A stretch of DNA of 64,000 nt from Catajapyx aquilonaris (lineage: Eukaryota). The position numbers were made by a program, and so were the translations under genes. The stretch covers positions 62,001-126,000 of the forward strand of contig KZ537990.1 of NCBI GenBank assembly GCA_000934665.2, given 5' to 3'. Below the pieces are notes generated by a model, which did no database searches, was not told where the DNA came from, and was given only the letters and a program-made list of their open reading frames with translations. Below, piece after piece: positions 4,601-61,546 of the stretch; the first letter of the stretch is position 1; each line of letters starts with the position of its first letter.

Positions 4601-5127
4601 AAAAATTCATTTGTTGTAGATTTAATACCCGAAATAATAAATTTATATTCTTCACACTTCAGTTCGAGTGCTGTGGGGCGTTGAGTTTCGAAGATTGGTC
4701 ATACAGTGTGTGGATGCAGGAAAAGCATACGAATAAAAAAGTTCCAGATTCATGCTGCATATCAGAGAGTCCAGGATGCGGAGTCAGAGATCATCCGAGC
4801 AACATATACTACAGCGTGAGTCATCTCTATTACATAATTTGAGAAATTATCAAAGGAATATGTTGACCTTCAGTTGTATAAATTGTGGCGATAACCGAAC
4901 ATTCATTTAATGATTGTATCGGGTTGTTCCCAGCTTTTTCACTTTTTCATTTGTAATAACATATATTGTTTACTTCCCAGGGTTGCATATACCACTTCTC
5001 ATCCAACATCAGAGAACATCTCATAATTTTGGGCGCTGTGGGTCTTGGAATATGTATTATACAAGTTTTTGGAATGATCTTCTCTTGCTGCCTGTATGTC
5101 AAGTTAAAGGACTTCCAACATGAGTGA
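1631..5127 (+). CDS. Tetraspanin, CD151/Tspan11-like, ~263 aa; exons 1631-1756, 3862-4053, 4422-4595, 4663-4815, 4981-5127
   Basis: All introns GT-AG and phase 0. Four hydrophobic segments, [13 protein letters not shown] in TM1, ALGCCG, and large-loop FECCG, VPDSCC and GC motifs; ends [12 protein letters not shown]. Confidence 0.93.
3064..3470 (-). other. Candidate nested antisense spliced unit in the tetraspanin intron; exons ~3470-3260 and 3202-3064; product unknown
   Basis: TTCCCAG acceptor, ~70 stop-free codons, a 57-nt GTGAGT...TGTACAG intron (3259-3203), and the frame continues across the junction (DEVRV|CAWSGW...DKFCRE*). No family recognised. Confidence 0.3.
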
Positions 5128-5941
5128 AGAATTGACCCGTTTTGGCACACGGAGTATTATTCATTATTGTGATGTATAGAAAAAGGCCAGAAAAATACCT
5201 GATGCTGAAGGCCAACTTATGATGCTGTGACCAAGTAAGTGAAGTTTGGAATATTGTACGGCATCGCAACATAACAAATTTTCTATTTATTGCAGGGAGT
5301 GACCTATGGCTTCCAGTCAACTACACAGCATCAAAGTGGGATAGCAGCAAAAGTCTGATAAAAAAATGAAAAAAATTGAACATTATTTTCTCGAGAAAGT
5401 TCATTGTGTTTTTATCAATCCATGCTCCTTTTCATTTCCTCTACAGAATTTCATTAAATCGATTCTTATACTGCACAGTCACACACTGTGACTCAGGAAA
5501 ATGGACATGTCCTGCACTCTATACAAATAAAGCTTGGCAAAATAATTATATGAAAAAATTGTGGCTGTGTACCTTGTGCTACTGTTTGTACGCGTAATTG
5601 TATTTTTGTACTGTGTGTCACCAACCAAGTGTTGCAACAACCAGCATTAAACTATTTTCTTCTCCTCCCATGTTTCAAATTTCATGTCATTTGCCTGCAG
5701 TATTCCTGACACTGTATGATCCTGAAAATTAATACCTTCTTCTAATGAGGCTCACATTAGTGGGAATGACGCCTACAGCACATCTGCTGGTAATGATGAA
5801 ACTGATACTTGCAACGTACATCAAATGCACTTTCAAAATAACGAGCAACCTGCATCGGTTACAACGTACTTAAAACAAGCCGCACTTTCTGTTACATGCA
5901 GCTTCCTTTACCGTATTAACACTAATTAAAAGCGTCACTTT

Positions 5942-8900
5942 TTAAAAGAGCTGGTCCCCCTCAGGTCGTGCAGGAAAAACATCCATCCATTGCTCGTCGC
6001 TTGCACCTAGAAGTCCAGGAAATTGGGTTGAAAGAGCGCTTAGTATCTGAGAGGAAATGTCTGAAGGGCTTCCTAGTTCCGGCAGAGGTTTTGTAGCTTC
6101 TTCGGTGAGTTCAAAGGGAATTGAAAAAGAGAAAGAATACTCCCGCAGGCGGCGCTCCTCATTTTCTTTTCTTTCTAAAACCTCTTTGAGGTTCGCTTTT
6201 TTTTTCTTTTCTCGAACGCAATTGCTCTCGGCAATCACTAGAGTTTTAATGCCGGTGGCAAACAACAGGGAGGCTTCCTCACCTATCTACGAAGCGGTTC
6301 TGGACCTTTTATAGGTCTCATTCATATTTTAAAATCTTTCCGAAAATAGCTATACGGTTGGATAAGTGTTGGGTCTACCAGAAAATAGGTTTTCGCCAGG
6401 TCACTGACTTGTGCACTCCATTTTCCAAAGACTGTCAAATTTTGCATTTTATTCACCCTCACATGAATCACACACATTTCTTAAAAACCTGAGCTCCTTT
6501 CCGGTCCATTTTTATAACTGACGTCTGTTATCACAGGAGTAAATATTAATGATCCGGTCCTTTTATCATCGTGCACCAGCATTGGAATTATAAAGAAGCT
6601 TTCAGCATTATTCCCCCCCCCCCCCGCCATTTTTTCCAAAGCTTCTCTTGTAATGTAGGCGAATTAATTTTTGTCACGAAAAGTTCTAATTCTGCGGGCG
6701 AAGATTTGCAGCTCTCCTGCTGCTGCTCCGATCTCCGCCAAAGTAATGTTTTTGTTGGCTTGCCAAATAAGCCGGACCAAAATTCCAGACACGTTACCCC
6801 GAGGCAGGCCCTGCGGAGGAAAATGCACGTCGATTTCCATTACGTTCAGAGAACCTTCCTAATGCAAACACCTTTTTTTTTGTAATGCGTATACTTTGTG
6901 TCACTTTTTTTTGTAAAAAAAATACTATGCATTCAAAATTTAGTAGGTGTGTCCTGAGTAATTATGATCATGTATGTTGCAAAAAAATTTCAACTTCTTG
7001 TTGCAACCATATACCGTTGGTGTAAAGTTCGCGTGACGAATATCCAACAAAACGTGTTCTGAAGAAATTGACTTTGTTGTGTGCTTCTCAGAGCCCAGCA
7101 GGGACTGAGTGCTGCAGGGCGCCCATTTCCAATGCCGCGATCCCGTTTCCTGGTGTCTCTTTCAATTTCCGCCGGAGAATTTATTGGAACAACCCGGGCT
7201 ACTAGGAAACAGAAGCCATGTCTTTTCCTTTGTGCAATTCCAAGAGCTCTTTGATTCCGTTTGTCTCTTGCTGGGTCGTGACCCCTCCCATGATTTCAAT
7301 GACCAGTGATCATTACTTTAACAATGAGACTCCAATGCAAATATCCAACTGCATAGTAGAACATTACTCAATCCTGGGTTTTGACGGATTGAAAATTTTT
7401 TCTTCCCAAAGCGCTTTGCTTTTGACTAACGAGTTGCCCCCCAATGATGCAAATGTCACAGTAATGATGCAGACAAACAATCGGAGGGGGGGAAATGACG
7501 AATGGAGTGATTTTGAAAAACCACGCCTCACATAAGTCATTCGCACCACAAAAATGTCTGGCGCAGAGCACCGTTTTGGCCCTGCCATACATTACAAGCT
7601 TGTGATTTACCGCTTACAGGTGTTGTAAAACTCGGACAAAATTGAAGACTATATTTTTTTTTTACATGGAATGACCTATAACTCGCGATGCCAGAATTAG
7701 ATTTGATGAATCAAGTCGACTTAATTATCAATTAATATGTCACATAAATGTAACTGTTGAATAAACGCAAAAAAAAAAAATCTGGCATTTCAAATTTTTA
7801 AGTAATTAACAAAACCTGATTCTCCCTCTGCACATTCCGCAAATGTGCAAAGGCTCTAAACTGCAGATTTCTTCCAGCTGCAGCAACAATTTCGCAAATT
7901 CTGGCGACAAGTTAAGCCAAATTTTAATCTCGCTTCCCACCACACAATTTCGCGCAAGGTAAGTCACACAAGCCATTTGTAATTCCACCTCTGAAAACTC
8001 TTGAATTTCACCCTCATTTTCCTCCTCCTTTTAAGGCTCCGTGCCAATTATCAAGATATGTTTAGACGGTCCATTAGTTCCGTTCGATTTCGCCATTCTA
8101 TTGATTACTGATAATGCCACAATTTTCAGTACTTCCGTGAAGGCTTAACGAAAAAGTGATGGTGAATTACCATCGGACCAAAAAAAAAAAAAAACTGCGC
8201 TAATGATGTCTGCATCCGGAATGAGATGAAAAATTAATTATCCAAAAGTGCAGTGTAGTCATGCCGAACACTAGCTGTCAATGCATGTTCTAATTAATTA
8301 ATCAGCAAGTTACCGCCTGCCAAGAAAATTCTAGCAAAAATTTGCCAGCATTACTCATTAGCTCGGAATGCAGATTACTCCCCCTAATGAATCAACTGTG
8401 AGAAGAACAGGCTTCAAATTATTTCTTCAAGTCATTTAATCGCAACCATTGTCGTCATGCATGAATTTCCACAAGTGACACAACTTACATTTACAGGCAA
8501 TAAAATTAATTGCCAGTAATTTTTGCGCATTTTCTAATATTTTATCCGTTATTTATTTGGTCACTCATGTACTTAATTTCTTTTAATTATTTCCCATTCA
8601 TTACAAGGTGATTCGGCAAAAGTTAAGTAAAAAAATCAATGAATTCATTGATTTTTTTTTGCTTAACTTTCGGTGGTTCCGGTAGCATCACCTTTTCCCA
8701 GTCAGCATGGGGAGTAATGGTAGCTAAAGGTCTCCAGTATCGACGTCTGCATTGGACATTTCGCCTCGAGGCTCCAAAAGATCCACCCAATATCTCGAAC
8801 TTGGATACCTCTCTTTCTTCTCCTCTCCCCCATCTTCAATAACAAGGTTCTTTTCTGGTTTCACTTTTCGATTTCCCGTTCCAGACATTGATCGAACGAC

Positions 8901-31803: not shown

Positions 31804-34800
31804 TTAGGCCTCCTGCGCCTGTTCGGTCTTTACCTTGTCGCCAGGCTTCTTGGACCATTCGGGTTTCTCCGCCTTTTTCTGAAATTGCAAGCAAAATTGT
31901 TGCATAACTTCGCAGTTAGGGCTTACTCCGCAATGTGAAAACAAACTTCGACGCCATTTTGATATCGTGATCACAAAATGGCGCCATTCTAGGCTTAAGA
32001 CTGATTAATCATGACAAGTGAGGCAAATCACAAAATAGTAATTTTTCAATTGACATAAATTATCATAGAATACATTTGGCAGCCATTTTGAAGTCATGAT
32101 CATGAAATGGCGCTAGGCCTAGGCCTTTTCTCGATGATGAGATAAACATGTCGAAAACTTTACCCCCTTGTCATCGTCGTCCATGGTGAACTCCTTCTTC
32201 GCAACCTGCTTCAGCTGGTTGCTGAACTTGAACTCAGTGGCCTTCTTCTGCAGTTTGGCGAAAGTCTGCTCGTACTTGGACACCTTCTTCAGTGTTGGCT
32301 TCATGCTGGAGGAAGTAACAGCAGTAATAATTGTAAGGTGAGGCAGCATACACAAGAGAAACTGTCTTATTTGGAAGTGTACTTACAACTTTCCGCGTCG
32401 ACTGTTCACGGCGTCATACAGTTCGCTGATCTATATGTGAACAGTGATGAAAATATGTATTAAAATTCCATGCAGTTGTGATATCAGCTGGATATTATTT
32501 GTCAGTCAAATTGGTGAAAACTACTTTCAAAATGGTGTATTTAGAAAAAAAAATGTACTTTACTTGAAAAGTGTCAGAAATTAAAACTTGCGCCTCGGGA
32601 ATAAGAGCAATATAAATGATGCAAATATATTGGGTGAATAACATAAGGTACAAAAACACAAAGCTATCGCATGCATCATAGCAACATTGACTGCAAACCA
32701 AGGAAGATTGGGAATTATCAAGTGTATGTGGCATGGTAATAGCATAATTATGTAGTGGACTAAAAATGCATGTTGCACTATTGTGTTAACCGTGTTTCAT
32801 TAGATAATAATCCAAAGTAGAGCATCGTATGCAATGTCAAAATATTATGCAGTTTTACCATTAATCAATAATTCATCATTGCTTGTGTTTTAATATTAGT
32901 TTCATGTCTCAAGTGCATGTGTTACAAAATACTACGAACGTGTACGTGACGCTATCCGCCACTTTTGTTGTCTGTGGAAGATTATTATGGGAGGAGAAAT
33001 ATTTTTCTTATAAACGGGCAATCTACAAGCCAGCTCGCAATATAAAAACTGCTGTCGTTTTATCCTCGGCTACTGTTGACAAACAGCAAAAAAGTGATAA
33101 ACAGTGTATTATGCTCTACTAAAAAAAAAACTGTGCGTGTGTCCTAATAGTGTCGAATAGGGGGCAGAGTAAGGATACGAGGAGTATAGTACAGTATACT
33201 ACTCCTCGAAAAAAAACCATGTCGAGTGACAACCAACATGGCGCACAACATATAATACAAAAACTGCTGTTCTACTAATATACAAAACAAAAATAAAGTA
33301 ACAGCCAGGAAGCTACAACAAAGAGTGGTCAGCTTTCATGGAGGGGGATTGCCCACAATGAGAGGCAAATATATCTTTTAAAAATGACTGTGTTATTTTA
33401 TTATAATTTGGTGGCTGGATGGCAAAAGCTTATATGCACAGAAACTCAAATTGCACAAAGAGAAGCGTTTTAAAAAAAGGAATGAACATGACATGCCACA
33501 ACCATATCAGTTTCTGACATATAGCCACCTAATTAATTATTATGTATTAGAATGGAATTATCGATTCACATGGATTTGGAATACAAAGTCGAAGTTTGAC
33601 ATTTTAGCTCTTGCCAAAAAATAAAGGATTATGCAACTGCCTTAGGAAAATGTGGTTACAAAAATAAAATCCAACATTTTATTTTCATTTCGGCCATGCA
33701 AAAAAAGTGCCATACTATATCGACACTACTATTTTGAGAAATAAATAAATAAATGCACGCCTGGTGATGGGAGGTAAGAATACAGTAATACCAATTATTA
33801 CAAAACCCAATTAGTACCGATTAGGGACATAGTGAAATAGTGCTATACGGTATGTACAGTCCCTTAAGTAGTTTTAGTACACTATGATCAACAAAGGGCC
33901 GACAACTTAATTACTTCAATTGTAACAAAGTTGTAAAATTAAATTCAGATTATTTCTACTGATTCTCGGATCTTCCAGTTTGTTTTCAATAATAATATTA
34001 ATAATAAATTTAGATAGACAGCTACACAAGAGCTGGTTGGAATTCAATTGCATACTTCAAATAAAAGTGCAGAAGTTCTGTCAAGTTGTAAATTTGACAG
34101 TAAGCTATTATTTTGACTACCCCAGAATCTTTGTTTGCTACATTTTCTTAACTGGTATCATACACTACAGAAGGTAGAATTAAATTTTTGAACAATACCT
34201 TACCATGAACCTTTCAGATAAATCAGAAATTTACATCACTGTCCTCTACTAATAAATTATGATCGTAAAATTTCTCACAATTTTAGGTGGTTCTCTTCCG
34301 GAACAATATCTATAAGTTTCGCATCCTATCCAATGAAATAACTAGCAACATTATTACGCCACATATAATAATAATTTTTTAGCTCGAATCGGATAATTAT
34401 TCTGGGCTAGTCAAAGCAGATCCGGACAAAAATCTGGCTTGTAAGCTTGGATCAAAACTTACCTCCTTCTTTTTCATCACGAAAAGAGACTGTACTTCTT
34501 AATCTCACTTTCTCACTTCATATTCCAAATCCCATATATCTGATTCTCATATTTGCGCGCTAAATACTCCTCGCGGATATGCTCGAGCTCCTCTACAATG
34601 AAACGAATAGAGTAGTCAACAAACACAAGTTACATTGTTTTGGTACTTTTTTAAAAAATTATTTGACTTTTCTAGTATTATTTTAAAATCCATCTTCCCT
34701 CCAGAAAGCATCTCTATGAAACAGTGTCCACTGAAACGCAAAATAAATGATTCCATTCTGGCCACAAATTCTTCCAAACTCCAATAAATATCGCATGCAT

Positions 34801-37222
34801 CTCAAATAATTGGCGCAAAATAAAAATAAACAACAAGAGAAGAGAGAGAGATAGAAAAAAAATCAAAGTGCTCGATTTTTTTTGTTGGATTACCTCAAGC
34901 TCCTTGACTATACACTGCCTCTCAAGATCATATTTGTCTTCCTCAATTTTGCACATTTTTGCATAGTATTCTTTGATAACCGATTGAAGTTCACCTATGC
35001 GAAGAAATAACAGACATTTAGGTTACTATTCTAAACCACGTGTTTACTATTTTACTATTTTGGCTCCGTCAGAGTCTTCATTGTGCAGAGGTAGACAAAA
35101 TAACCCACCATTAAATTATACGACGCGACTAAAGTTGATACACCAAAAATTGTGGTAATCCAAAAGACAACAAAAGTGAAAAATATAGCATAAAAAACTA
35201 ACAAAGCAAGACGACAAAAAACACAACTACCTCCAGCATCACTAACAATACCAGTGCTGTAAAAAAAAGTAGACAAGACACATTGTGTTGTTACCGTTGT
35301 CAGAGACGAGACCATCCTTCACGTGTAGTAGAAAAAGAGGGCAAAGTTTAAAATGTCAGAGAAGAGCAGTGGGGGGAAAAATATTATGAAGAGTATGAAA
35401 AAAAGCAGTTCCAATTTTTAGTGCATCGAATTTTGTTTAGCATCCGCCTTACAAACCTCGTGTTCCTTCTTTTCCACAATAACCTCAATATCATATTTGG
35501 TCGTCTCAACAGCTGCAATTCTATCATGAAATTCCTTACAGAACTGACGCAGCTCATCTGGTAAAAATGGTTACAAGAGTCATGACTTGTTTTACAAGTA
35601 GTGCCACGAGCATTTTCAAAAAAAAAGCATACAAAGGTATAGCATTTTTCACATTGCAGAAGAGAAATATGCAGAAAAATGAAATAAAGTCATAATGTGC
35701 AATATATTTGTCTCAGAATGAAACACGAATTAAGGGACCATATTTTTCCATTAAATGTAGTGACATTGTGAGACGAACATGTCCACCGTGTATTATGTAC
35801 ATTACTCTCTAAATTATTTCTGAGCTATTTTTAAAAACTTATTCCCCCATTTGACTCATGCTTACATTTAAAAAATGAACTCAAAAAGATACTAAAAATT
35901 GTTATTTATTAAGATGATTTGGAAGACCTGAAACGCTTACAAAATAATTTAGAGAGTAGAGTGTGCTGTGTTTTTATCCTGTTGCATCACCAAGTGTCCT
36001 GTCATGAACATACCACAAATTTCCAAAATATGAAAATTTATGCTAAACTTTAAAAGCAAATGCAGGTGTACCTTCACTGGCGCCGTCAACATCCTTTGCC
36101 TTTCCGCATCTCTGCTCAATGCATTTCCTCCTTTCGGCGGACTTGCGCTCCTGTTCCTTCTTCAATTCCTCTGCGGCCTTCTTTCTCAACAAAACCTGCA
36201 ATGGACACCAAAGTAAAAACACTGCCCTTACTCTTGTCCAAAATATTGCAGATTGAACACTCACCCTGAGCTTCTTCTTCCTGTCAGGGGTCATGAAACC
36301 CTTCTTTCCTTTCTGGGCCGCTGCAGCCTCCTCCAACCTTTTCCTGACCTCCGCCTTCTTCCTATCGATGTCAGCCTGCTTCTTCTTCAGCTTTTGGTGA
36401 AAAGTACAAGTCAGTCATCACGTCCACAATAGTCAAATCTACAGGTCACATGGGGACTACATGCATTTTAAAAGTGTTACCAGAATGCAATGAGTACACC
36501 CAATCTGCCTTCTTTCTCTGCAAAAATCATTTACAATAATTTATTGCAATGATGTAAGCAATTATATAAGTAGAGTATTTGCAAGTATGCATAAATTATT
36601 CATAGCAATGTTCCAAGTGCCCCAAGGACCACAGTTCAGACAACCGTGTAAAAGTATGATGATAAACAAGTACTTCAACTGTCCAAAACAAAAGATAAAG
36701 GCGGTGAAAAAGTTTTTGACTGCCTGTCATTGGAAGCGATTGCCAACGTTACTTGTCCATTAGACTCAAGGGCTTTTTCTCCGCGCCAACTTTAGAACAC
36801 GAATATTGCATAAGTTCTCACTCCATCGACGAGCCAAAACTCAAAACAATTTGGTGCATTACTTAAAGCTCAAAATGTTTACATAGCTCTAATCTCAAGT
36901 ACACATAGGTCTACTACATTTTATCAAGTGTTCGAGCGTGTAATTTTTTTGTAAGAGTTCGGAATTTTTTTGCGAGAGTTTTTGCAGCGCGGTTGTATTT
37001 TTGAATCCGCAGTGTTGAGAAAATAAGGCAGATGAAACCGGATGTGGGGGAAGAGAAATATGTGAAGACGTTTCCAAGTCAAGTCTTGCCATCATGCAGA
37101 AAATATCTTCAAGCCACTCAGATACTGAAAAAAGCAGAGGAAGAAATTAATTCAGATTTTATCTGGAATAAACACATTTTAAAGCCATTTTATTGAACTT
37201 ACCTCACAGCTTCGTCCGCCAT
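31804..37222 (-). CDS. wupA: Troponin I paralog 1 (divergent), ~208 aa; exons 37222-37208, [microexon 36517-36500], 36390-36265, 36195-36072, MXE a 35557-35457 or b 34994-34894, 32430-32387, 32305-32164, 31878-31804
   Basis: [52 protein letters not shown] and KPEWSKK; the frame closes with either 101-nt MXE. Confidence 0.92.
34496..34592 (-). pseudogene. Decayed third mutually exclusive exon (MXE c) of TnI-1
   Basis: 97 nt instead of 101; EELEHIREEYLARK, then frameshifted ESDIWDLEYEVRK*D*E; homologous to 44808-44708 and 57707-57607. Confidence 0.85.
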
Positions 37223-42170: not shown

Positions 42171-45100
42171 TTAGGCCTCCTGTGCCTGTTCCCCGCCTTT
42201 TACCTTCTCTCCAGCCTTCTTTGACCATTCGGGCTTGTCCTTGTCCTTTTTCTGGAAAGAAGCAACAAACACACATGTTTATTACGGGAATATATATGAT
42301 AGATCAAAAATCTATAATCCAAAATGCGTAAGCAATCGATTTTTTCCATTTTTAAAAATGTGTGTGAAGCAACAATATTCTCATAGGAACTTTGTGAAGA
42401 AGAATCCTGAAAAATAACTTGTTTTCTTGCTTGTACAAAGATAGACAGCACAGTTAATGAGTCGTATCAGACAAACTTTATCTCTTGTTTGAAAATATGC
42501 CTTTGGTCAGTGCGGTGTCCTTTTCATTCATCGCGAATTTTAGTTTAGGCGTTGTGCCAAGGCGACACCGCGGTATGCCTGCTGTGTTCTGAGCCAACAA
42601 TTCGAAAATGACTAATTATTGTCGGTGCTTCACACAGCATAATAATTAGGCGCCTTCTGGCAGCTTTCGTGAAATAAATTGGGTGCACAAAATAAACTGC
42701 TTGCCACACACCTTCTTGATGTCCTCCTCCTCCATGGTGAACTCCTTCTTCTGGACCTGCTTCAGCTGGTTGCGGAAATTGAACTCAGCCGCCTTCTTCT
42801 GCAGCTTGGCAAACTTGTTCTCATACTTGGATACCTTCTTCAGGGTTGGCTTCACGCTGAAAAGTTCGGGGATGAAAATTATATCTGATGGATACAGTAT
42901 ACCCTTTACAGGAATTGAATAAATTGTACTTACAACTTTCCACGAAGATCGTTGACAAGTATGTTCAGTTCGTTGATCTGTACAAATGATGACAAAAAGT
43001 GTCAATTATTTGCCCTAGAGAAGTGTAGTGTAAAAACATATCAATTTTGTTTACGTACTTTGGTGCTATGTTATAAATAACACTAGCTGTAATAGTTCTA
43101 AGAATGCTATAAGATTAGTGGCAATAAGAAAGGCTACAGGATATAGGATAGTCATGCGCTGCTGAATCACGTGCAGCCATTTCATGCAGGCAATAGTAAG
43201 TGTGATTATAATTACCATTAATAGATAGAGTGAAATATGTGACATAAATAATAACGCATGGAATGTCGAAAAATAGTTGCATGTTTTGCTTTCACGTTTC
43301 GCAATAACATATTGACTCTTAGATGTGTGTACTGCATGTTGACCAGAATCATATTAACAAGAGATACGTTTTAGCATGTGTTTATCTACATTAATAAAAA
43401 AACAGATGCCAAAATATGGCGACTGGCGCAAAGAAAATTAACCTACACATGTTTTTCCTTGACTTGTATAGTTTGACTTTGAAAATTGAATGTGCATCAG
43501 AAATAAGTGTTCGAGTGATCAATTTCGCATTGAAAATTTGGTGCTATTGGTGGTGCAAAATGTAGATGTGAATATGCTGAGGAGGGAACTACAGTAGCCT
43601 ACTAGAACTATCTGTTCGCAAGCAACCTATTGGGCAGGTGGTTAACATGGTGCGCAATCCAAATAGTATGTCAAGAAACTGTGCCTAATTTGCATACTGA
43701 GAAGAAAAAGAAAGTATAGTCAGCCAGTTGCAGCACAGAATGGTCAGGGTTTTATGGAGGATAAGTGTGAAATAATATTGTGATTAATTTTTGTATTAGA
43801 GGATTTGGAATACAAAGTGTAGGCATATATGTACAGTTAGCTCTTCTAAAGAAATAAATTCCTTTAAAATTTATTATGCAAAGTATAAAAATTTAACAAA
43901 TTTGATTTTCCTCATGCATATAAGAAGTAAACTGAAATAATTCTAGTTAAAAATTCTATAATCGCGATTGGTGTACATGAACAGAAATATTGCAACAAAC
44001 TTGCCTTCAGTTAGTATATAGGCTACTAGAATGAAATAAAAATTACTACGCATTAAGAAACTTTAAGGGGTTCATTTCTAGCAGTAGCATTTTGTAACAT
44101 TGTTTTATTTCAGGGTACCACCGTATCAGTTCAAGGTTTCCAAACGTCGCAATATAACTTATATGCCCTTGGCAACTTGTCATTGATACACTTTAATACC
44201 TAAGATCAGGATATTAAAAGAGACATGTAATTTTTTTCTGTTCATACCGACATGCAACTAAGGCTGACCTTTTTATATCGAGGATGTACTGTCTTTAATT
44301 ATTATTAAGCATAGACTTTCAACTTTACTTTGGATCCTGCACCATATTAATCAGGCTTGACATTTGGGGGGTCAATCCACTGGATTGTACCAATATCCAG
44401 TTTTTCTTCAAGTCGAATAATCTACTGTATGAGACTAAAAACCCAGAAAGCAAATCTTCTGGCCAGCCCGATTAATATTTTGTGACCTTTATTATTTTCT
44501 GCAATGTTAAGGAATATTAAAATAGTCCCTTATAAGAAGCTTTACAGATTTACATGTCACAGATTTTTCCTTGTTGAATATGTTTTGTTAAATTAAAACA
44601 TTTGACATATTCTTAATTCGGGCAGGTCAAGAAGATGTGAACAATATGGGAATTATATTAGATTGAGAATAATTTTTTATTAATATTCCACGTAATGGAA
44701 ACTGTACCTCGTGATCTTTCTTTTGCACTTCATATTCCAAATCCCATTTCTGCGATTCACAAGACTGAATGCGCTTATAATACTCCTCAATCACTTGCTT
44801 GATCTCGCCTACAAAACGATAGCAAATGGTACATATAAAAAATGGACAAAAAAATCCCATGTCACCGATCTAGATTTTTTTTTAAATTTAACCTCTCCAT
44901 ATATTAATTTCTGTGAACGGATAGAGTCCACTGAAATTGCAATATTGATACGAATCAATTCTGGCCACAATCCTTTGTAGATGTCAATGAAGGTCATGCA
45001 ACTTGCCTACTGATTGCAGCGAAAATCAGAGCGAGAGAAGAGAGAGAAGAGACACTAAAAAAAAGCTCGCGAAAATTTTTGCAAAAATCGTCGTTACCTC

Positions 45101-48100
45101 TAAATCCTTTACTTTATTCTGCTGCTCAAGATCATAAGTGTCACCCTCAAGTTTGCAACATTTTTCGTAGTACTCTCGCACAATAGACTGAAGCTCCGCT
45201 AGAATGCGAAAAAAATGCCAAAATTTACCATGTTGGTATAATTCTTGCTATTGCGCGATGCCACTTCCCTTGGCAAACATTCTTAAAACACAAAATAAAA
45301 TCTCAAAAAATTGTAAACATACAATATGTACAAATACCGCATAAAAACACAAAAAAAATCCAAAAAATGCAGCATACAAAGCAAAGTCCACAAAAAAACA
45401 CACTTTGTTGTTACCAACCCACAAATTTCTGCGTAATAAAAATACAAAAAAAGGCAACATAATGTTACCAGAATTATGTCAACTGTCAGAAAAAAGGCCA
45501 TCCTTCACATGTAGTAGAGAAAGAGAAAATTGTGTTTAAGAGTAAGACAGAGCGGCAATAAAATAAAAGCTTGAAGGATCAAATAAGCTGTATTTTGGGT
45601 TTTAGTGCTGAAATGATTTTTTTTTTTGCTTGCATCATCAGAATGGCCTTACAAACCTCGTGATCCTTGAATTCCACTTTAACCTCTAAATCATACTTAG
45701 ACGTCTCAAGAGCAGCAATTCGCTGGTGAAATTGCTTACAGAATTCACGAAGCTCACCTAATAAAACGATTAGAAAGTCACAACAAAATATTCATAGAGC
45801 AACACAACAAAAAAATACCACCCTCCAAAAATAATATTTTCTCTCCATTTGAAAAAAATACCTGTGTCCGATGTATATGTGAAGTCCTGGAGTGTAAAAA
45901 AGAAATTATGGCCAGAATATTCGCAGGCATTTAATTGTAATTAAATGTGTTTGACCGGCCAACTTAAATTATTATAGGAAAACATGCGCCAGATCAGAAC
46001 ATAATTTTGGCGCTTTTTTGCTAGAATAAAAATCCAAAAATTCCGGGCTCTAATTTTTGATAGAAAATTATCTCGCGAATCTTCTCATATTCGCGAGATT
46101 GTTTCTGATATTTTATCATTTTCTATCAAACATTAGAGCCCGGAATTTTTGGATTTTTTTTTATTCCAGCCAAAAAAGCGCCAATGGTTTAAAATGTTTT
46201 CTCTGAAATGAATCAGTTATCGCGACAGTTTACTGTTGCCAACAATAAATTTTCTGGCTCTTTTCCAGCCGAAAAATATTTCCTAAGAGGAGGTGCAACC
46301 GGGGAATAATTAATAATTCGTCGATTTCAGCTGATTTTTAACCAATAGAGAGAACATTTAGTTGCAATTCATTAAACACTCTTTTCATGTGGTCTGCTCT
46401 GATCTGTCGCATGCAAAGTATGTAATATTTTTTTATTGAATTGCAAGGCATTACCGTCGCCAGCACCATCGAAGTTCTTTGCCTTTCCGCATCTCTCCTC
46501 AATACACTTCCTTCTCTCTGCGGACTTGCGTTCCTGCTCTTTCTTCAACTCCTCAGCGGCCTTCTTTCTCAACAGGAGCTGCAGAAGAAAAGCACATTAT
46601 TGTTGCGACATGTTCTCTCGGAGAATTCCTGAGCGGTCGTTGGTCTCACCCTGAGCTTCTTCTTCCTCTCGGGGGTCATGAAACCCTTCTTTCCCTTTTT
46701 GGCAGCAGAGGCCTCCTCCAGCCTCTTTCGCACCTCCGCCTTCTTCCTCTCGATCTCAGCCTGCTTCTTCTTTCTCTCCTGATTGTTTGCACAAGGTGAG
46801 TTAAAGTATTTCAAAAATTGAATTTGCTTTACGGAACAACCAGCTGCAAGCACTTTTTTTTGTAATGAAAAAATAGCAATGCACAAGCTGCTACTCGTTC
46901 CTATTGGGTTATGCCAAATGCTTTCTGATGTAAGCTGCAACCGGCCTTTCCGCAAATACATGGTTACTCTAGCTACTATTGTAGTTGACTACAAATATAA
47001 CACAGCCTAGATTTGCATAACAATCAGAGCCTAGCGAGTGCGGTCATTTTGATGGCCATTTTTTTTTTAAATAAAGAAACTGCTGCCTGATTTAGAGAAA
47101 TGATTGATGATAATATCTCGCAAGCTTCAGATATCAAATCTGAATTATCTGAATTATTAAATAACTAAAATTCAGACAATTGGGACTCCGGCCGTTATGC
47201 AAGGGCTTTAAATACAAAATGTTGTTAGTATAATGTATGCATATGAGGCCTTTACGATTATATTAACTATGCCATACAATCTGTATATTTTCATATCAAT
47301 TTTTCTAAACATATTAATGCGATCCACAGTGATTTTAAAGCACGACTATTCCATTACTGCAATAATACATAGCATTATTTTTAGCCGCCGCTTTGCTGCC
47401 ATTTACCAAAATTTAATTAATGCATTTAATGCCCATTAACATTAAGCTAGGCGCTAAAAGCTCATTGAGAATTTAAAGCATTTAAGCAAATTAATAAACG
47501 GTGTCCAATTGTTTTGTTTGAATCTATCACATCATACAAAATAGTCCCAATTTTTTTCTAATTTCAACTACGTAAATTGAGGCAAATTGCACAATTTCAC
47601 ATTGAAATGGCTAATACAAATAACCTCCAATTAGAGGTAATATTATAAACGGTTTTCCCAAGGTTCAACCATTGGAAAAATTTTCCTTTCGACCTCATAT
47701 GCTCAGCACGTGAATCAAACCCTGGTCCTTGGAGAGTGTCCCAAAAAAATCATCCTCAACATCATCGCGCCTCGCCCACTTTATCGCAAACTTTGGCTCC
47801 TGCAGACGGGTATTTATAGCCTATCAAATCGTTCTGGCCTCGAGGATGCTCCCCACCAGTTACAGACTTTTTTTTTTGCCGATATATTTATGTGTGCCCA
47901 TGTGGTTAGTGTTCACACGTTCGGTAATCTTACGTGCCTCTTCCACCCTCTTCCTCTGAAAAAAAGAAGGAAAAAAAATATATTAATAGACGTCAACAAT
48001 TGCAGATATGTTAGTTCTATACCGTTCTCTCCACTTGTTATTGCCATACGAAAAAAATGAGACAACATATAGTCAAAAAACTGTGGGTTTCAAACAAAGG

Positions 48101-55702: not shown

Positions 55703-58700
55703 TTAGGCCTCCTGTGCCTGTTCACCTCCTTTTACCTTGTCGCCAGCCTTCTTCGACCATTCGGGCTTGTCGGCCTTTTTCTGAAACGAAAACCACGATT
55801 CAATTAGCTGTCATGTAATGTACAGAGAGCTTCATCCCACACACATGTCCTTTTCCTATAAAAACATGAAATTGCTCATGTGCGTCAATCCATTAAGAGC
55901 GAAGGTGTTCAAAAGAAGTGGAAGAACAACAAGGTCTATGATGATGTTTTGGCCAATCTAAAGTGACTTTCAATTCTGCTCCAAAAATGGAACCTTTTTC
56001 CAGTCCGTCCCTAATGTACTTATGATTAAAAGCAGTAGAAATGTTACCCCTTTGTCGTCATCCTCCATGGTGAACTCCTTCTTCGGGACCTGCTTCAGCT
56101 GGTTTTTGAAGTTGAACTCAGCCGCCTTCTTCTGCAGCTTGGCGAACGTCTGTTCGTACTTGGACACCTTCTTCAGGGTTGGCTTCACGCTAAGAAGTTA
56201 TAATAAATTGGCTGTAATTGAGCAGCTTAGAGGGTACTGTATGTCGAAGAAAGAAAAAAAAAGTTACTCACAACTTTCCTCGGAGGTCGTTCACTTGTAG
56301 GTTCAAGTCGTGGATCTACGCGAATGGTAATGAGACATTAAAATCTGGGATGTAACCTCGGGTAAATAACAGTTGCTCAAATAATGTTGCTTAACATTTT
56401 CTGATAATTTAGCCGTAAACCGGCTTAAGACATTCGATTTTTAAGAAGCACAAAAATAAGCTATAACAAAGATGGAATGATAGCGCAAAAAGCAACACAA
56501 ACTAAGCTTTGCTACATTACGAAGTACACATAAAGGAGAAAATAAAGATTACACAAAAGGGAAAATAATTTATACACAAAAGGGGAAAATAATAATTTAT
56601 ACACGCAAAGAAAAATATAAATAGTATGGCATGCTCATGCATGTAAGATATTGCAATGACAGGAACTGCAGGAAAGGAATGACTTTATGAAAGTGGCTGC
56701 AAATGAATCAGATTTTCCCTTGCTGAAATTCGACACGAAAAGTATTTGAATGGAAAAAGCAAGGTGATTCATTTGATGCTCAGAAAAAAGGGTTATTATT
56801 TGCCAAAAACACGTTTGGAACTTCGCATAGTTAGCAGTCATGTAAGACGACACATTGCATCACTTTTGTTGTCTAAACGCATCACAAAAATATTGTAAAA
56901 AAATCGTTGTGTACCATACCAGTAAATGTACCAAATCTGCCAAGTAGTCATTTGAAAAACTGCTCTGTGACAGTGAAAAAATATGCATTGAAGTTCATGT
57001 GTATGGGGGGGGGGGATATTGGGGGGAAATATTGGAGGGCTTTATGTCTATATGGGGGGCATCAAACTAGAGGGTTTGGGGGAGAATTACCATAACAGGC
57101 ATCAGACTATAGTTCTACAGCCGGTCAAGAACAGCTTGTGGAACATGTTGCCAAAATACTACAGTGTGAAATACAAAATTCAGAAATGAACCGTAATATT
57201 GGTATTTAATGGGGACAGGGAGGCTCAAAAATACTTCAGTGGTTGGAATATACTCCAATTTCTAGTTCGCGGAAATCGGAATAATTTCATTTCCTTTATA
57301 GAACTTCAGTGTTTTTCGGAAATGATAATTTTGGCCATCCCAGAACTCGGTATTATTTTTCAAAGGGCTATGTTTGATATCTCTGTAACATCTACAAACG
57401 TTCAGTAAAAGGTCACGGGTTATTTGCGCGTTTGATTATTATTATTATGCTGCAAATCTTTTTCCAAGCTGCTCAAAGAGAACTGGCACAGGGACATTAA
57501 AAATAACATCTGTAAGCTTTGACGTCATTCGGAGATGGCCAAAAAAAATTTGAGAGCAAAACTCGTGGTGATGGTCATGTCAGATAATTCCTTTGAAAAA
57601 CTGTACCTCAAAGTCCTTCTTTTTTACTTCAAATTCTAGATCCCATTTCGACGATTCGCACGTTTCAATGCGCTTAAAGTAGTCCTCAATAATCTGCTTG
57701 AGGTCGTCTAGGAAAATAAAATTGGATCATGACAAAGGAAATAATTATTATGAGACTTTTGCCTCTTGCATGTATAATTTACACATGAAAATATGGTGTG
57801 TCGGAAATACATTCTGGCCACAATATTACTTTTCAAGGGCGATATTCATATACTGAGGGGGAAATAGTTATAAAATATTGTTATTTCAAATAAAAAAATA
57901 TTCGAGTCCTCTGAAATAATCGCTAAGTAACTTATGAAGGTAGCTTTCGCCATATTGCGTGATATTATTTCCTTGGCGGTCAACTTGTACTTTTTTAGGC
58001 TCGTTTAGGCTATTATAAAACGTCGCAACACAAAATAGCCTATTCGTAGAAAATATTTTGTAAAATGTTGATATGTAGCGCAGAATCCATAGATCCAAAA
58101 GACAACAAAAGTGTAAAAAAAGACAAAAGCCTGCTGCATGAAAAATTATTTGCAAAGCAAAAAGCCCACAAGACACATACCCTCGCACCAACCCAATGAA
58201 AAAAAGAAGCTGCCAGACATCACAAAATATGTGGTTACTACACTAAGAAATATTCAGTACAAAATAAAAATCCAGCCGCTCACGAAAAAAAATAATCAAA
58301 AAAGCACAATGGTCAAAGAGACAGAGCGACAAAAATATGAGCAAAAAAAGCTGCCGAGTCGCTTAAGTGTCTCATGCCATCCGGAATACAAACCTCTTTG
58401 TCCTTCTTTTCCACAATAACCTCAATATCATACTTGGATGTCTCGACAATATTAATTCTGTCGTAATATTGCTTACAAATGTCACGAAGGTCATCTGTCA
58501 AAAAAGAAACGGTTAAATGACAATAGATTATGATTCTTTGACTCACATAATCATGGCCAGAATGATTCATATACTCATGTAATTATTTTACTGCTAAGGA
58601 TGTTGCAATGAGTAAAACATTGATATGATTTCAACTTGCCAAATCAAAAGGTAAGACTGTTATCTGCAAAAAAAATACAAGTTTTTTCTGTGCATGGGCC

Positions 58701-61546
58701 ATAATCCAGAAATTGGAAAGTGACCAATTTCGTTCAATTTTGTGTACTCTACGTACATCGATCAAATTGAAATGCATTGTGAACGTTTGTTTTCCTGGAG
58801 TGTGAAATATTAATTATTGAAACACGGGCATCAGAGTCACTGATGAGGACAGACAGTCCATACCATCACTGGCTCCTTCCACGCTCTTTGGCTTTCCGCA
58901 TCTCTCCTCAATACACTTCCTTCTCTCTGCGGACTTGCGCTCCTGTTCCTTCTTCAACTCCTCAGCGGCCTTCTTTCTCAGCAAAACCTATCAGGACCAA
59001 AATTGGGTTGAGATCTGATCCGGTACACTTTTCAACATCCAAACTCACCCTGAGCTTCTTCTTCCTCTCAGGGGTCATGAACCCCTTCTTTTGCTTGCTG
59101 GCAGCAGAGGCCTCTTCGAGCCTCTTTCGCACCTCAGCCTTCTTCTTGTCAATCTCCGCCTGCTTCGCCTTTTTTGCCTATTGGGCAGAGCACACATGTC
59201 AATCTGCACCTGTTGCGCATGGGTTAGTGGACAAACAGCGGTCAGATGGAGTTGGCAGCGTGAGTATTTCAATCACTCTTCAATTATGGTGTCTACAGTG
59301 TTTGCCAATTGAAGTGTCCCTTTCAGAAGAAGAAAAATCGCAAAAAGTTGTCAATAGTTGTTGACTTTCAGCCAAAAAATAATTATAACTATATATATAG
59401 CTCAGCCTAATATTAGCAAATAATTCTATCTGCAGCATCCAAGTAACGAGCAGCTTATGGACATCTGAAACGGACACATCAATTGTTACCCAATCTGCAC
59501 TGCATGAAAAATTTACAAACAATCACACATGCATATGATATTTTTTTTGCAAATTGTTTCATAGTGAAATAAGCTTTGCGTGATGTGTTAATCACAATCC
59601 ATTACCTCGGTGACATTGTGAAACTAGCACATATCTCCCCAAGTTACGTGATGGATCTCGGCAACACCTGGTTTTTCCATAGGTGGCCTTGGAGAGAATG
59701 ATCACGTGTGAACATGCAGTTAGTGGTTCATACTCCCTCGGTACTCTTATACGGTTCCTCTTCAGCCCTCTTACTCTGAAAAATGAAGAAGAAAATAGCG
59801 TCACTAATTATCCAAATATGACAATAAATTTTTAACAAAATGTTCACCCAACAACTACTCGAGGACATAAAAAAATTACAAAAAATTCAGTCCTCAAAAT
59901 ACCAAAAAGACATCATATAAAAAAACTACACAAATAACTACATACGTGCGAAAAAGGAACAAAAAAAACCTACAAAATGAAGCGAAAGGACGCAATATTT
60001 ACCGATTTATTTAAAGCAGCGTTGCGCTCTGGGGGGGCAGGGACTAAGGGGGGCACACACAACATATCTTCTCTCCAGAGGGCCTTTTTGGAGGGCAGGG
60101 TCAATGTTTTGTGTGGGGGGTTGGGGGGTTGTTTTGGAGGGTTGTTTTGGAGGGTCAGAATATGTATGGACGCTGTCTGAAAGCATCTCAACAAGGGATC
60201 GAGAATATAAAATAAATAGTGATTGGGACAAGCCTAATTACTGAGTGCGATAGTGCAGGGAAATAATATTCGTGCTCAGGCTTGATTCTGAGTAAGCCTA
60301 TATGACGCAGTATTTTGCCCTTTTACCAAAGTGTGTATGATGTCTTTTTTTATTAAAAAGTACTAAGAAAGTCGGACTACGAACTACATCAAGATTTATT
60401 ATATGACGTCAGTCCTAACATTAAAAATTGTAGTGGAGTTGTATTGTTTGTAGCCTACTGTATAGGCATTGTTACAATTTTAAACTTTTCTGACAGCTGT
60501 CATTAAATATAATCACTGCAACAACAAAGGATAAAGTAACAATTTGCTATTCATGTACAGTACGTCACTTAAATATCTCTTTGGAATTAGTCGGAACAAT
60601 AGTTTTTTTTTGCAATATTGGCTTTGGCAGGCAAAATCCCACGAAATTGTTTATAACTACGTCTACAATACTTCAAGCACTTCTTAGCCTTCGAATTTTT
60701 AAAAGCAAGCGAAGTTTAAGCATACTTAGAGCATATTGCTCAAGTTAGAAACCATAGTGGTGGTGGTAAACAAATACGAGTACAACATTACAGTATTATT
60801 AAAAGATGTCAATTCCAAAAACAATTAAAGTTTGCAATAGGCATTGCCATGTCCTTCGAGCAAAATGGTATTGTTGTGGAATTAAAATCTCTTCACACCT
60901 TCAAGCCTTATTATACTGTAGTCAAAGCCGTCGAGTAGTGAACACAAAAATGTATTAATTAGTCAACTTGTAATGTCAAAAATGTAACTGCAAAAGAAAC
61001 AGCCATTTAAAAAGCGCGTCCACACCAAAAAATGTGGGAATAAAAATATACGTGACGTCAAACCATGCTTGTTCCAATGTACCTTCCGTTTTATGTAACG
61101 TTTGTTGTATCCCAAGAGGCAGAGAAAACGCACACAAAAGTTGGGGTTTGTGAGAAGGGATTGAGATGCTGGAATGAGAAAGGATAATTTTTTTTTTGCT
61201 GCTGAGGAATCTCCATTTTTTTGTTTTCATCTGTTGTGTTTCTTGTTGTTCAACTCGAGAAGAGGGCAAAGAAGACACAGAATCATCCCACAATTGCCCC
61301 CAGTTTTGTTAACCCACACCGTCATGCAGGCGTGGTGTTGAATTCGTCGAGTTCGCCGATAGAGTACTGAGTGTTTGAAGGTTTGGAGAAATAGAAAGGA
61401 AGAGCGAGAGAGAGAGAAAGGAAAAGAAAAGAAGAAAAATACATAAACATTAATCAGTACGAAATTTTTTGACTAATCTACATACCTTTCTTCAATTTAA
61501 AAATTTCCATCTAAAATATGACTTACCTCACCTCGTCGTCCGCCAT
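55703..61546 (-). CDS. wupA: Troponin I paralog 3, ~210 aa; exons 61546-61532, [microexon 59775-59734], 59177-59049, 58987-58864, MXE a 58494-58394 or c 57707-57607, 56315-56272, 56189-56048, 55780-55703
   Basis: [48 protein letters not shown] and [21 protein letters not shown]. Confidence 0.95.

Follow-up and report, generated by a model that had tools for sequence, protein, structure and literature searches.

How is the last exon of a mutually exclusive cluster in a troponin I gene kept out of messages that use an earlier exon? The question is raised by a 64,000-nucleotide (nt) stretch of the Catajapyx aquilonaris genome (assembly GCA_000934665.2, contig KZ537990.1, positions 62,001 to 126,000), referred to here as the window, whose minus strand carries three tandem troponin I genes, TnI-1, TnI-2 and TnI-3. 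In TnI-1 and TnI-2, a short element in the intron that follows the last alternative exon, exon c, is transcribed into RNA complementary to coding sequence inside exon c itself. This anti-exon helix recurs in troponin I loci outside the window, and it is very probably real and conserved. The reading favoured here, to which we give a probability of about 0.55, is that it acts as a conserved long-range silencer that masks exon c.

An intronic element complementary to exon c

The element was recognised through the word GGATTTGGAATACAAAGT, which is found without change on the plus strand at 33572-33589 and 43801-43818, and with two mismatches on the minus strand at 34515-34532 and 44727-44744. With up to three mismatches allowed there are four matches in the window against 0.14 expected, and none of 100 shuffles reached four. 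The minus-strand transcript of the element, ACUUUGUAUUCCAAAUCC, pairs with GGAUUUGGAAUAUGAAGU in exon c; both of the DNA mismatches become G-U pairs, and they do so on the sense transcript only. The helix is 20 base pairs (bp) long in TnI-2 (44745-44726 with 43819-43800, -26.9 kcal/mol) and 18 bp long in TnI-1 (-22.7 kcal/mol), where a G-G opposition stands at its end. The features concerned are as follows.

44708..44808, minus strand: mutually exclusive exon c of TnI-2; 101 nt, open reading frame, AG and GU boundaries
44726..44745, minus strand: target in TnI-2 exon c, GGGAUUUGGAAUAUGAAGUG; codons W-D-L-E-Y-E-V, 19-38 nt 5' of the 5' splice site
43800..43819, minus strand: TnI-2 anti-exon element, transcript CACUUUGUAUUCCAAAUCCU; the 18-nt core, 43801-43818, is the same in TnI-1
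43801..43858, minus strand: island aligned between TnI-2 and TnI-1; 58 nt, with a U-rich 5' part opposite the purine-rich 3' end of exon c
43831..43838, minus strand: AACUGUAC, complementary to the 5' splice site of TnI-2 exon c, GUACAGUU (44707-44700); 11 nt 5' of the element
34496..34592, minus strand: pseudo-exon c of TnI-1; 97 nt, shortened by a 4-nt deletion and interrupted by in-frame stops; splice signals AG and GUACAG retained
34515..34532, minus strand: target in the TnI-1 pseudo-exon c, within a 22-nt run identical to TnI-2
33572..33589, minus strand: TnI-1 anti-exon element; 18 nt, same as in TnI-2

In both genes the element lies in mid-intron between exon c and the next constitutive exon, at a distance from the exon c 5' splice site of 889 nt in TnI-2 and about 907 nt in TnI-1. 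At up to three mismatches the complement of the element matches copies of exon c only; exons a and b do not match. The helix includes exon nucleotides of exon c, as in the class of inhibitory stems.

How much else do the two introns share? A blastn comparison of the TnI-1 and TnI-2 introns returned a single collinear match, the 18-mer, at 100% identity. The 12-mers common to both introns are seven overlapping words in the element and one A/T-rich word. Local alignment widens the shared island to 58 nt (43858-43801 against 33625-33572), its 5' part being looser and U-rich. On the exon side, the TnI-1 exon c, which has lost 4 nt and is interrupted by in-frame stops, keeps a run of 22 nt identical to TnI-2 over the target, while elsewhere in the exon about six in ten aligned positions match TnI-2 by a hand count of the alignment. 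In TnI-3 the target has drifted to TGGGATCTAGAATTTGAAGTA (codons GAT CTA GAA TTT), and no intronic partner was found for its exon c, the best score there being reached by 203 of 300 shuffles.

These results bear out most of what a preliminary description of the locus had reported from the letters alone. It had noted an 18-mer common to the two introns about 0.9 kilobases (kb) after exon c, its pairing with exon c through wobbles confined to the sense transcript, the unchanged target in the frameshifted exon of TnI-1, and the drifted, partnerless target of TnI-3; each of these observations stands.

The same helix in other troponin I loci

Is the element peculiar to this genome? Relatives were sought in metagenomes with the constitutive exon; 141 came up, and 80 of these were retained as loci, many of them spliced transcripts and few genomic. 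Of 592 stretches matched in a scan with the alignment of exon c, none was confirmed. At one mismatch or fewer, a 12-nt core of the element is present on the gene strand of three of the 80 loci (L044, L063 and L072). On the other strand there are seven matches; six are mutually exclusive exons (five of c type and one in L028), and the seventh, in L014, is unrelated.

The cluster of L072 has four exons, the last of c type. Its exon c sequence GGAUUUGGAAUAUGA (5931-5945) pairs with UCAUAUUCCAAAUCC (7106-7120), 1139 nt into the intron, through 15 Watson-Crick pairs (-20.7 kcal/mol); no stem that involves an exon of this cluster scores better. In L044 the exon sequence GGAUUUGGAACAUGAAGUG stands opposite CACUUCAUAUUCCAAGUCC, 2.7 kb downstream, over 19 positions with one G-U pair and one C-A mismatch, the latter arising from a Tyr-to-His codon change. 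The L044 complementarity continues toward the 5' splice site, giving a duplex of -45.2 kcal/mol against a null mean of -32.9, with none of 15 shuffles as low. In L063 the element, ACAUCUCAUAUUCCAAAUCC, lies about 1.1 kb upstream of the INELNIQ exon; the contig starts inside the intron, and exon c is off the contig. The introns of these three loci do not align with the window, and only the exons do, at 72-88% identity. In the five-way alignment of the island, the invariant run falls in the exon-complementary core.

The loci are not all of one kind. The exon c of L044 matches the transcript L019 over its last residues, and L019 has the ISDLNAQ motif of the named insects; the motif is INELNI in the window, in L072 and in L063. 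The helix therefore spans two deep types of troponin I, and by its likeness to L019 the L044 locus probably comes from an insect.

The pattern of change differs between the two arms. The exon arm is nearly invariant across loci and the element arm varies. Five positions of the element differ between loci by transitions that swap a Watson-Crick pair for a G-U pair, and most changes in the element are compatible with wobble pairing; on the other strand they would be A-C mismatches. One terminal pair has changed on both sides, from G-C in TnI-2 and L044 to U-A in L072. Both arms, with changes compatible with pairing, are seen in the two window paralogs, L072 and L044, and the element without its exon in L063. 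The codons of the target are also unusually uniform. The string TGG GAT TTG GAA is exact in five c-type exons (TnI-2, L017, L044, L067 and L072) and in the TnI-1 pseudo-exon, while other types of exon that code for KWDLEY mostly have GAC CTG GAG; the second KWDLEY exon of L072 has CTG GAG. This codon use suggests an extra constraint on the c-type exon in a sample of species that was uncontrolled.

The preliminary description had proposed to abandon the element if it were absent from orthologous introns or proved to be a dispersed repeat. It is present in the introns of L072, L044 and L063, with four of nine informative loci lacking it (see below), and it shows no sign of being a dispersed repeat, occurring, within the window and the 80 loci, at the expected places only.

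Some further complementarities lie near the element. In L072, UCUCCUUGCAAAAA (7201-7214), about 80 nt past the element, pairs with 5583-5596, 290 nt upstream of exon c (14 bp, -19.1 kcal/mol), and its positions 7202-7212 also pair with 11 nt of the preceding exon (4910-4920); these pairings may represent a second loop-out or a second anti-exon pair. In L044 a second short complement to the target lies at 4737-4746, about 70 nt after the main element (CCAAAUCCCG against UGGGAUUUGG, 10 bp). In TnI-1 the 5' splice site of the pseudo-exon, GUACAGUCUCUU (34484-34495), is complementary to AAGGGACUGUAC (33854-33865), 630 nt downstream and inside the loop of the exon helix, a candidate helix of 12 bp at -16.5 kcal/mol. 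A bulged candidate in L015 with three apparent double changes came from optimisation and was not counted; it fails the ungapped test described below (245 of 300 shuffles).

Is the complementarity more than chance?

Within a single locus, the length of the helix says little. Runs of at least 18 pairs with G-U allowed arose in 30 of 100 shuffles of the approximately 3.7-kb TnI-1 pre-mRNA segment and in 25 of 100 for TnI-2, and run length was dropped as a statistic because of this. Among 100 shuffles, the best stem was at least as stable as -22.7 kcal/mol in 10 and at least as stable as -26.9 kcal/mol in one. Among stems of at least 11 pairs in these segments, the TnI-1 helix ranks first and the TnI-2 helix second.

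In a narrower comparison, exon c extended by 8 nt was matched to the intron that follows it, with an ungapped score and 300 shuffles. Duplex energy with interior loops had proved too permissive as a statistic across loci (null means of -21 to -35), and the ungapped score was used instead. The observed score was reached by one shuffle in TnI-2, three in TnI-1, four in L072 and 16 in L044. In all four of these loci the exon arm ends at exon nucleotides 81-84. It is the recurrence in other species that lifts the helix above chance.

The pairing of the 5' splice site itself is less marked. The GUACAGUU/AACUGUAC pair taken alone is marginal in TnI-2, its score being reached by 90 of 1000 shuffles. 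Among the loci, such splice-site pairing reaches significance by itself in L072 only (8 of 1000 shuffles); by the same kind of shuffling it is not significant in TnI-1, L044 or L015.

Organisation of the troponin I clusters

The assignment of these genes to the troponin I family rests on the 48-residue constitutive exon. It matches 1629 proteins at E <= 1e-5, most of the listed matches carry Pfam PF00992, and those that have a name are troponin I of insects. In Nasonia the exons of the isoforms are laid out alike, and one of them, CEGQKWDLEREV, is of c type. The alternative exons are homologous copies of about 101 nt, three in TnI-1 and TnI-2 and two in TnI-3, as in a mutually exclusive cluster. 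Homologues of about 34 codons were located by tblastn with the exon c peptide:

35555-35454, minus strand: TnI-1 exon a
34998-34891, minus strand: TnI-1 exon b
34546-34490, minus strand: TnI-1 exon c, broken
45761-45654, minus strand: TnI-2 exon a
45202-45095, minus strand: TnI-2 exon b
44812-44702, minus strand: TnI-2 exon c
58492-58391, minus strand: TnI-3 exon a
57705-57601, minus strand: TnI-3 exon c

No b-type exon was found by tblastn in the TnI-3 cluster (57601-58492), which has exons a and c only. After exon c of TnI-2 the next constitutive exon stands at about 42977-42935, and the intron between them is therefore 1.73 kb long; the corresponding intron of TnI-1 is about 2.06 kb. In every genomic locus with more than one cluster exon the final one is of c type. 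The 5' splice site of exon c is therefore the closest to the downstream acceptor.

Predicted folds and companion helices

When the segment that runs from exon c to the element is folded, the minimum-energy structure includes every pair of the helix in TnI-2 (20 of 20), TnI-1 (18 of 18) and L072 (15 of 15), with mean pair probabilities of 0.98, 0.94 and 0.99, respectively. The exon helix is not the only long-range structure predicted in these clusters. Two further kinds of pair were found, one resembling the docking and selector elements of other mutually exclusive clusters.

45903..45918, minus strand: TnI-2 docking-like element AUUCUGGCCAUAAUUU, upstream of exon a
44958..44973, minus strand: TnI-2 selector-like element GGAUUGUGGCCAGAAU, upstream of exon c; extended duplex with the docking-like element, -30.8 kcal/mol
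58550-58564 with 57810-57824: docking-like/selector-like pair of TnI-3; extended duplex, -27.4 kcal/mol
34754-34767: selector of TnI-1, present on its own
35165-35179 with 32959-32973: CACUUUUGUUGUCU/AGACAACAAAAGUG pair in TnI-1
58100-58113 with 56861-56874: CACUUUUGUUGUCU/AGACAACAAAAGUG pair in TnI-3

Upstream of TnI-1 exon a there is no match to the docking-like element at two mismatches or fewer, and no contiguous partner for the TnI-1 selector was found. In the second long-range pair, CACUUUUGUUGUCU with AGACAACAAAAGUG, one arm lies in the intron that follows exon a and the other in the intron just ahead of the downstream constitutive exon, and the pairing loops out exons b and c; TnI-2 has no such pair. 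Each paralog thus retains a different two of the three conserved helices.

The preliminary description had gone further and proposed that the exon helix opposes the upstream docking/selector pair in a bidirectional structural switch. As a competition between structures this finds no support. The two helices use separate segments that do not cross, and the minimum-energy fold of a 2166-nt TnI-2 segment, from the docking-like to the anti-exon element, holds three helices together: the exon helix (20 of 20 pairs), the docking-selector helix (13 of 16) and the GUACAGUU/AACUGUAC helix (8 of 8). Because they occur in one fold, the docking-selector helix (45918-45903 with 44973-44958) and the exon helix are compatible and not alternatives. 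A functional antagonism between them is possible, and TnI-1, in which the docking partner is lost and the anti-exon element kept, hints at it.

The first intron of the TnI-2 cluster also contains a perfect 27-bp inverted repeat (46132-46158 with 46028-46054, -41 kcal/mol). Many differing loose ends are seen nearby, at 46249-46284, in DNA run X1, as expected of a dispersed repeat or mobile element.

Which exons are used?

Transcripts of the window were sought in run X5, a set of assembled contigs from another sample of the same organism whose kind is unstated and which appears RNA-like by its minus-strand GT..AG junctions. In TnI-1 the junctions join the downstream exon to exon b (32430->34894) and exon b to the upstream exon (34992->36070); in TnI-2 they join the downstream exon to exon a (42977->45657) and exon a to the upstream exon (45755->46453). 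One cluster exon is present per messenger RNA (mRNA), b alone in TnI-1 and a alone in TnI-2, and both isoforms therefore skip exon c. The X5 contigs cover both elements without differences.

An odd junction in the same run, 36193->46648, would span 10.4 kb from a TnI-1 exon to a TnI-2 exon. All eight of its variant letters match the TnI-3 exon at 59044-59172, and the junction is most simply read as TnI-3 mRNA placed on the paralogs. TnI-3 is seemingly the most highly expressed copy in X5, contig depth being a poor measure.

How might the helix act?

We infer in vivo formation of the helix, with skipping of the exon as its result. When transcription has passed mid-intron, 15-20 nt of the intron would pair with the W-D-L-E-Y-E-V codons of exon c, the last exon of the cluster, with weaker flanking pairing toward the exon c 5' splice site and, in TnI-2, over it. 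The 3' third of exon c would be buried and its 5' splice site enclosed in a loop of 0.9-2.7 kb. Lowered recognition of exon c would then let exon a or b join the downstream exon. Silencing is in keeping with where the helix sits, on the exon and in TnI-2 also on the 5' splice site, and with the junctions that skip exon c in the one RNA-like run. TnI-1 may be the most telling case. Its exon c is dead, exon b is expressed, the docking partner is lost and both arms of the exon helix are kept, a combination that a silencer would predict and an activator would not.

Where could such an element have come from? The reverse complement of the L044 island resembles the exon over a longer stretch than the helix, and an inverted-copy origin is likely for this reason. 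On this view the island would have begun long ago as a copy, in inverted orientation, of the 3' end of exon c, and selection would have preserved no more of it than the part that pairs. A wider proposal can be built on this, which we put forward tentatively and at rather less than even odds. It holds that an inverted copy of the last exon's 3' end became a selected silencer in arthropods of both the insect and the non-insect type, that it outlived the death of its exon in TnI-1, and that together with an activating docking-selector pair it exerts a two-key control. On this proposal the silencer would persist in TnI-1 to keep out of the message a dead exon that has not lost its splice sites.

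Several observations weigh against masking as the function. Of 69 degenerate codons for the same residue, 48 are identical between TnI-1 and TnI-2, so that synonymous sites are unsaturated and comparison of the paralogs is not decisive by itself; nor do the paralogs offer covariation, because both arms are identical in the two genes, and the protein sequence is a further constraint on the exon arm. In a single locus the length and energy of the helix are poor evidence. One element position is disruptive, giving A-A in L072 and, if L063 has the usual exon, A-C there, and the C-A mismatch of L044 also interrupts the helix. Among nine loci with a c-type exon and a downstream intron, no partner was found in four: TnI-3, L039 (score reached by 97 of 300 shuffles), L018 (282 of 300) and L052 (259 of 300). 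These four have short downstream introns, of about 0.2-1.4 kb, and other target codons. Since they lack a partner and L015 offers only its optimised, bulged candidate, the element is not universal. The c-type exons are common in spliced metatranscriptome contigs, and the exon is not simply off. The RNA evidence consists of the contigs of one run, which include transcripts of paralogs from outside the region and give next to no cover around TnI-2 exon c; no transcript with that exon was seen among them. The direction of the effect is deduced from the anatomy and from TnI-1.

Could the helix serve another end? It might be architectural, looping out 0.9-2.7 kb and so shortening the path from the 5' splice site of exon a or b to the acceptor, or timing co-transcriptional splicing, with the burial of exon c incidental. 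Looping is used in this gene family, as the second conserved pair of TnI-1 and TnI-3 indicates (35179-35165 with 32973-32959; 58113-58100 with 56874-56861), and TnI-2, which is without that pair, has the exon helix. An architectural role nevertheless leaves unexplained why the exon itself, at the same codons, is one arm in four loci and why the flanking pairing runs toward the 5' splice site; its practical prediction, more of a or b and less of c, is the same as that of masking, and we consider it unlikely. The form of the helix also recalls RNA editing. At classical ADAR sites a coding sequence pairs with a conserved element of the intron that follows, and synonymous sites in the exon are frozen; the targets of ADAR are mostly neuronal. 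A duplex of 18-20 bp, longer in L044, might on this analogy be an editing-site complementary sequence that recruits ADAR to adenosines in the D-L-E-Y-E codons. Against this, troponin I belongs to muscle, and recoding gives no point to a helix kept in the noncoding exon c of TnI-1. The spliced exons c of L008 and L009 are identical over 102 nt to genomic L015, which argues against high-level editing there, L015 being the weakest case and contigs losing rare variants. Editing appears quite improbable as the reason for the helix.

Does the element need to pair at all? It could be a single-stranded site for a splicing factor, its likeness to the complement of the exon being incidental. To our knowledge its core contains no recognised motif. 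Conservation ends exactly where complementarity ends, and the changes observed are those that preserve G-U pairing; a single-stranded site is very unlikely on these grounds. In its favour, Muscleblind is needed in Drosophila for the correct choice among the four variants of wupA exon 6 (PMC3315501). That the element is a functionless relic, left by an inverted partial duplication of exon c, by a short gene conversion or by a chance match, is harder still to credit. The longer resemblance of the L044 island to the exon makes an inverted copy a likely origin, and run length by itself is not significant. A neutral copy should nonetheless have decayed along with its flanks, but five loci retain the core amid introns that cannot be aligned. 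Gene conversion over just 18 nt between unrelated flanks is hard to believe, and it would leave the other species unexplained. Masking of exon c remains the reading that we prefer.

If masking is correct, what follows? The choice of troponin I isoform sets the properties of different arthropod muscles, and a conserved exon-masking helix would be a concrete, mutable cis-element for that choice. It would account for why synonymous sites of a coding exon are frozen (TGG GAT TTG GAA). The three genes of the window would amount to a natural experiment, each with a different two of the three helices and one with a dead exon that keeps its silencer.

Relation to known systems

No report of RNA pairing in troponin I or wupA was found in the literature searched, subscription papers and supplements (notably Yang et al. 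2011) lying outside it. In Drosophila, loss of Muscleblind leads to the wrong choice or double inclusion of wupA exon 6 variants; no cluster of YGCY motifs explains the effect, and recognition of RNA structure was suggested (PMC3315501).

In human ATE1, exons 7a and 7b are governed by competing and ultra-long-range elements, R1-R5, all of which are described as intronic (PMC7797038). The troponin I clusters are similar in that several conserved helices act, or would act, jointly on one mutually exclusive set; they differ in that the exon helix and the docking-selector helix share no strand. A closer parallel to the expected effect is ISTL1 of SMN2 exon 7, an inhibitory long-distance stem described as intra-intronic (PMC3783185). 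As in troponin I, its 5' strand is near the 5' splice site of the alternative exon and its 3' strand deep in the downstream intron, and it inhibits inclusion (PMC3783185). The troponin I helix differs in having its 5' arm in the exon, 19-38 nt from the 5' splice site, in spanning 0.9-2.7 kb and in belonging to a mutually exclusive cluster. The span of ISTL1 is reportedly hundreds of nucleotides.

Competing structures between a docking site and selectors are known from the mutually exclusive clusters of Dscam exon 6, 14-3-3 zeta and Mhc (PMC4691838, PMC6071210, PMC4174434). The troponin I elements resemble them as long-range, deeply conserved complementary boxes in the diverged introns of an arthropod mutually exclusive cluster, and the troponin I clusters additionally carry a docking-like and selector-like intron pair of their own. 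In the systems as described, both arms are intronic and several selectors compete; in troponin I, by contrast, the 5' arm (44745-44726) is inside exon c, and only exon c has a partner. The expected effect is also the opposite, repression of the adjacent exon and not its activation.

Exon 6B of chicken beta-tropomyosin is a mutually exclusive muscle exon that is reportedly repressed by a local stem formed of exon sequence and the upstream intron. It too is a repressive stem that includes the exon; the troponin I helix is instead long-range and draws its partner from the downstream intron. If the masking function is borne out, the repertoire of mutually exclusive splicing would be widened from intron-intron docking pairs to include an exon-intron pair.

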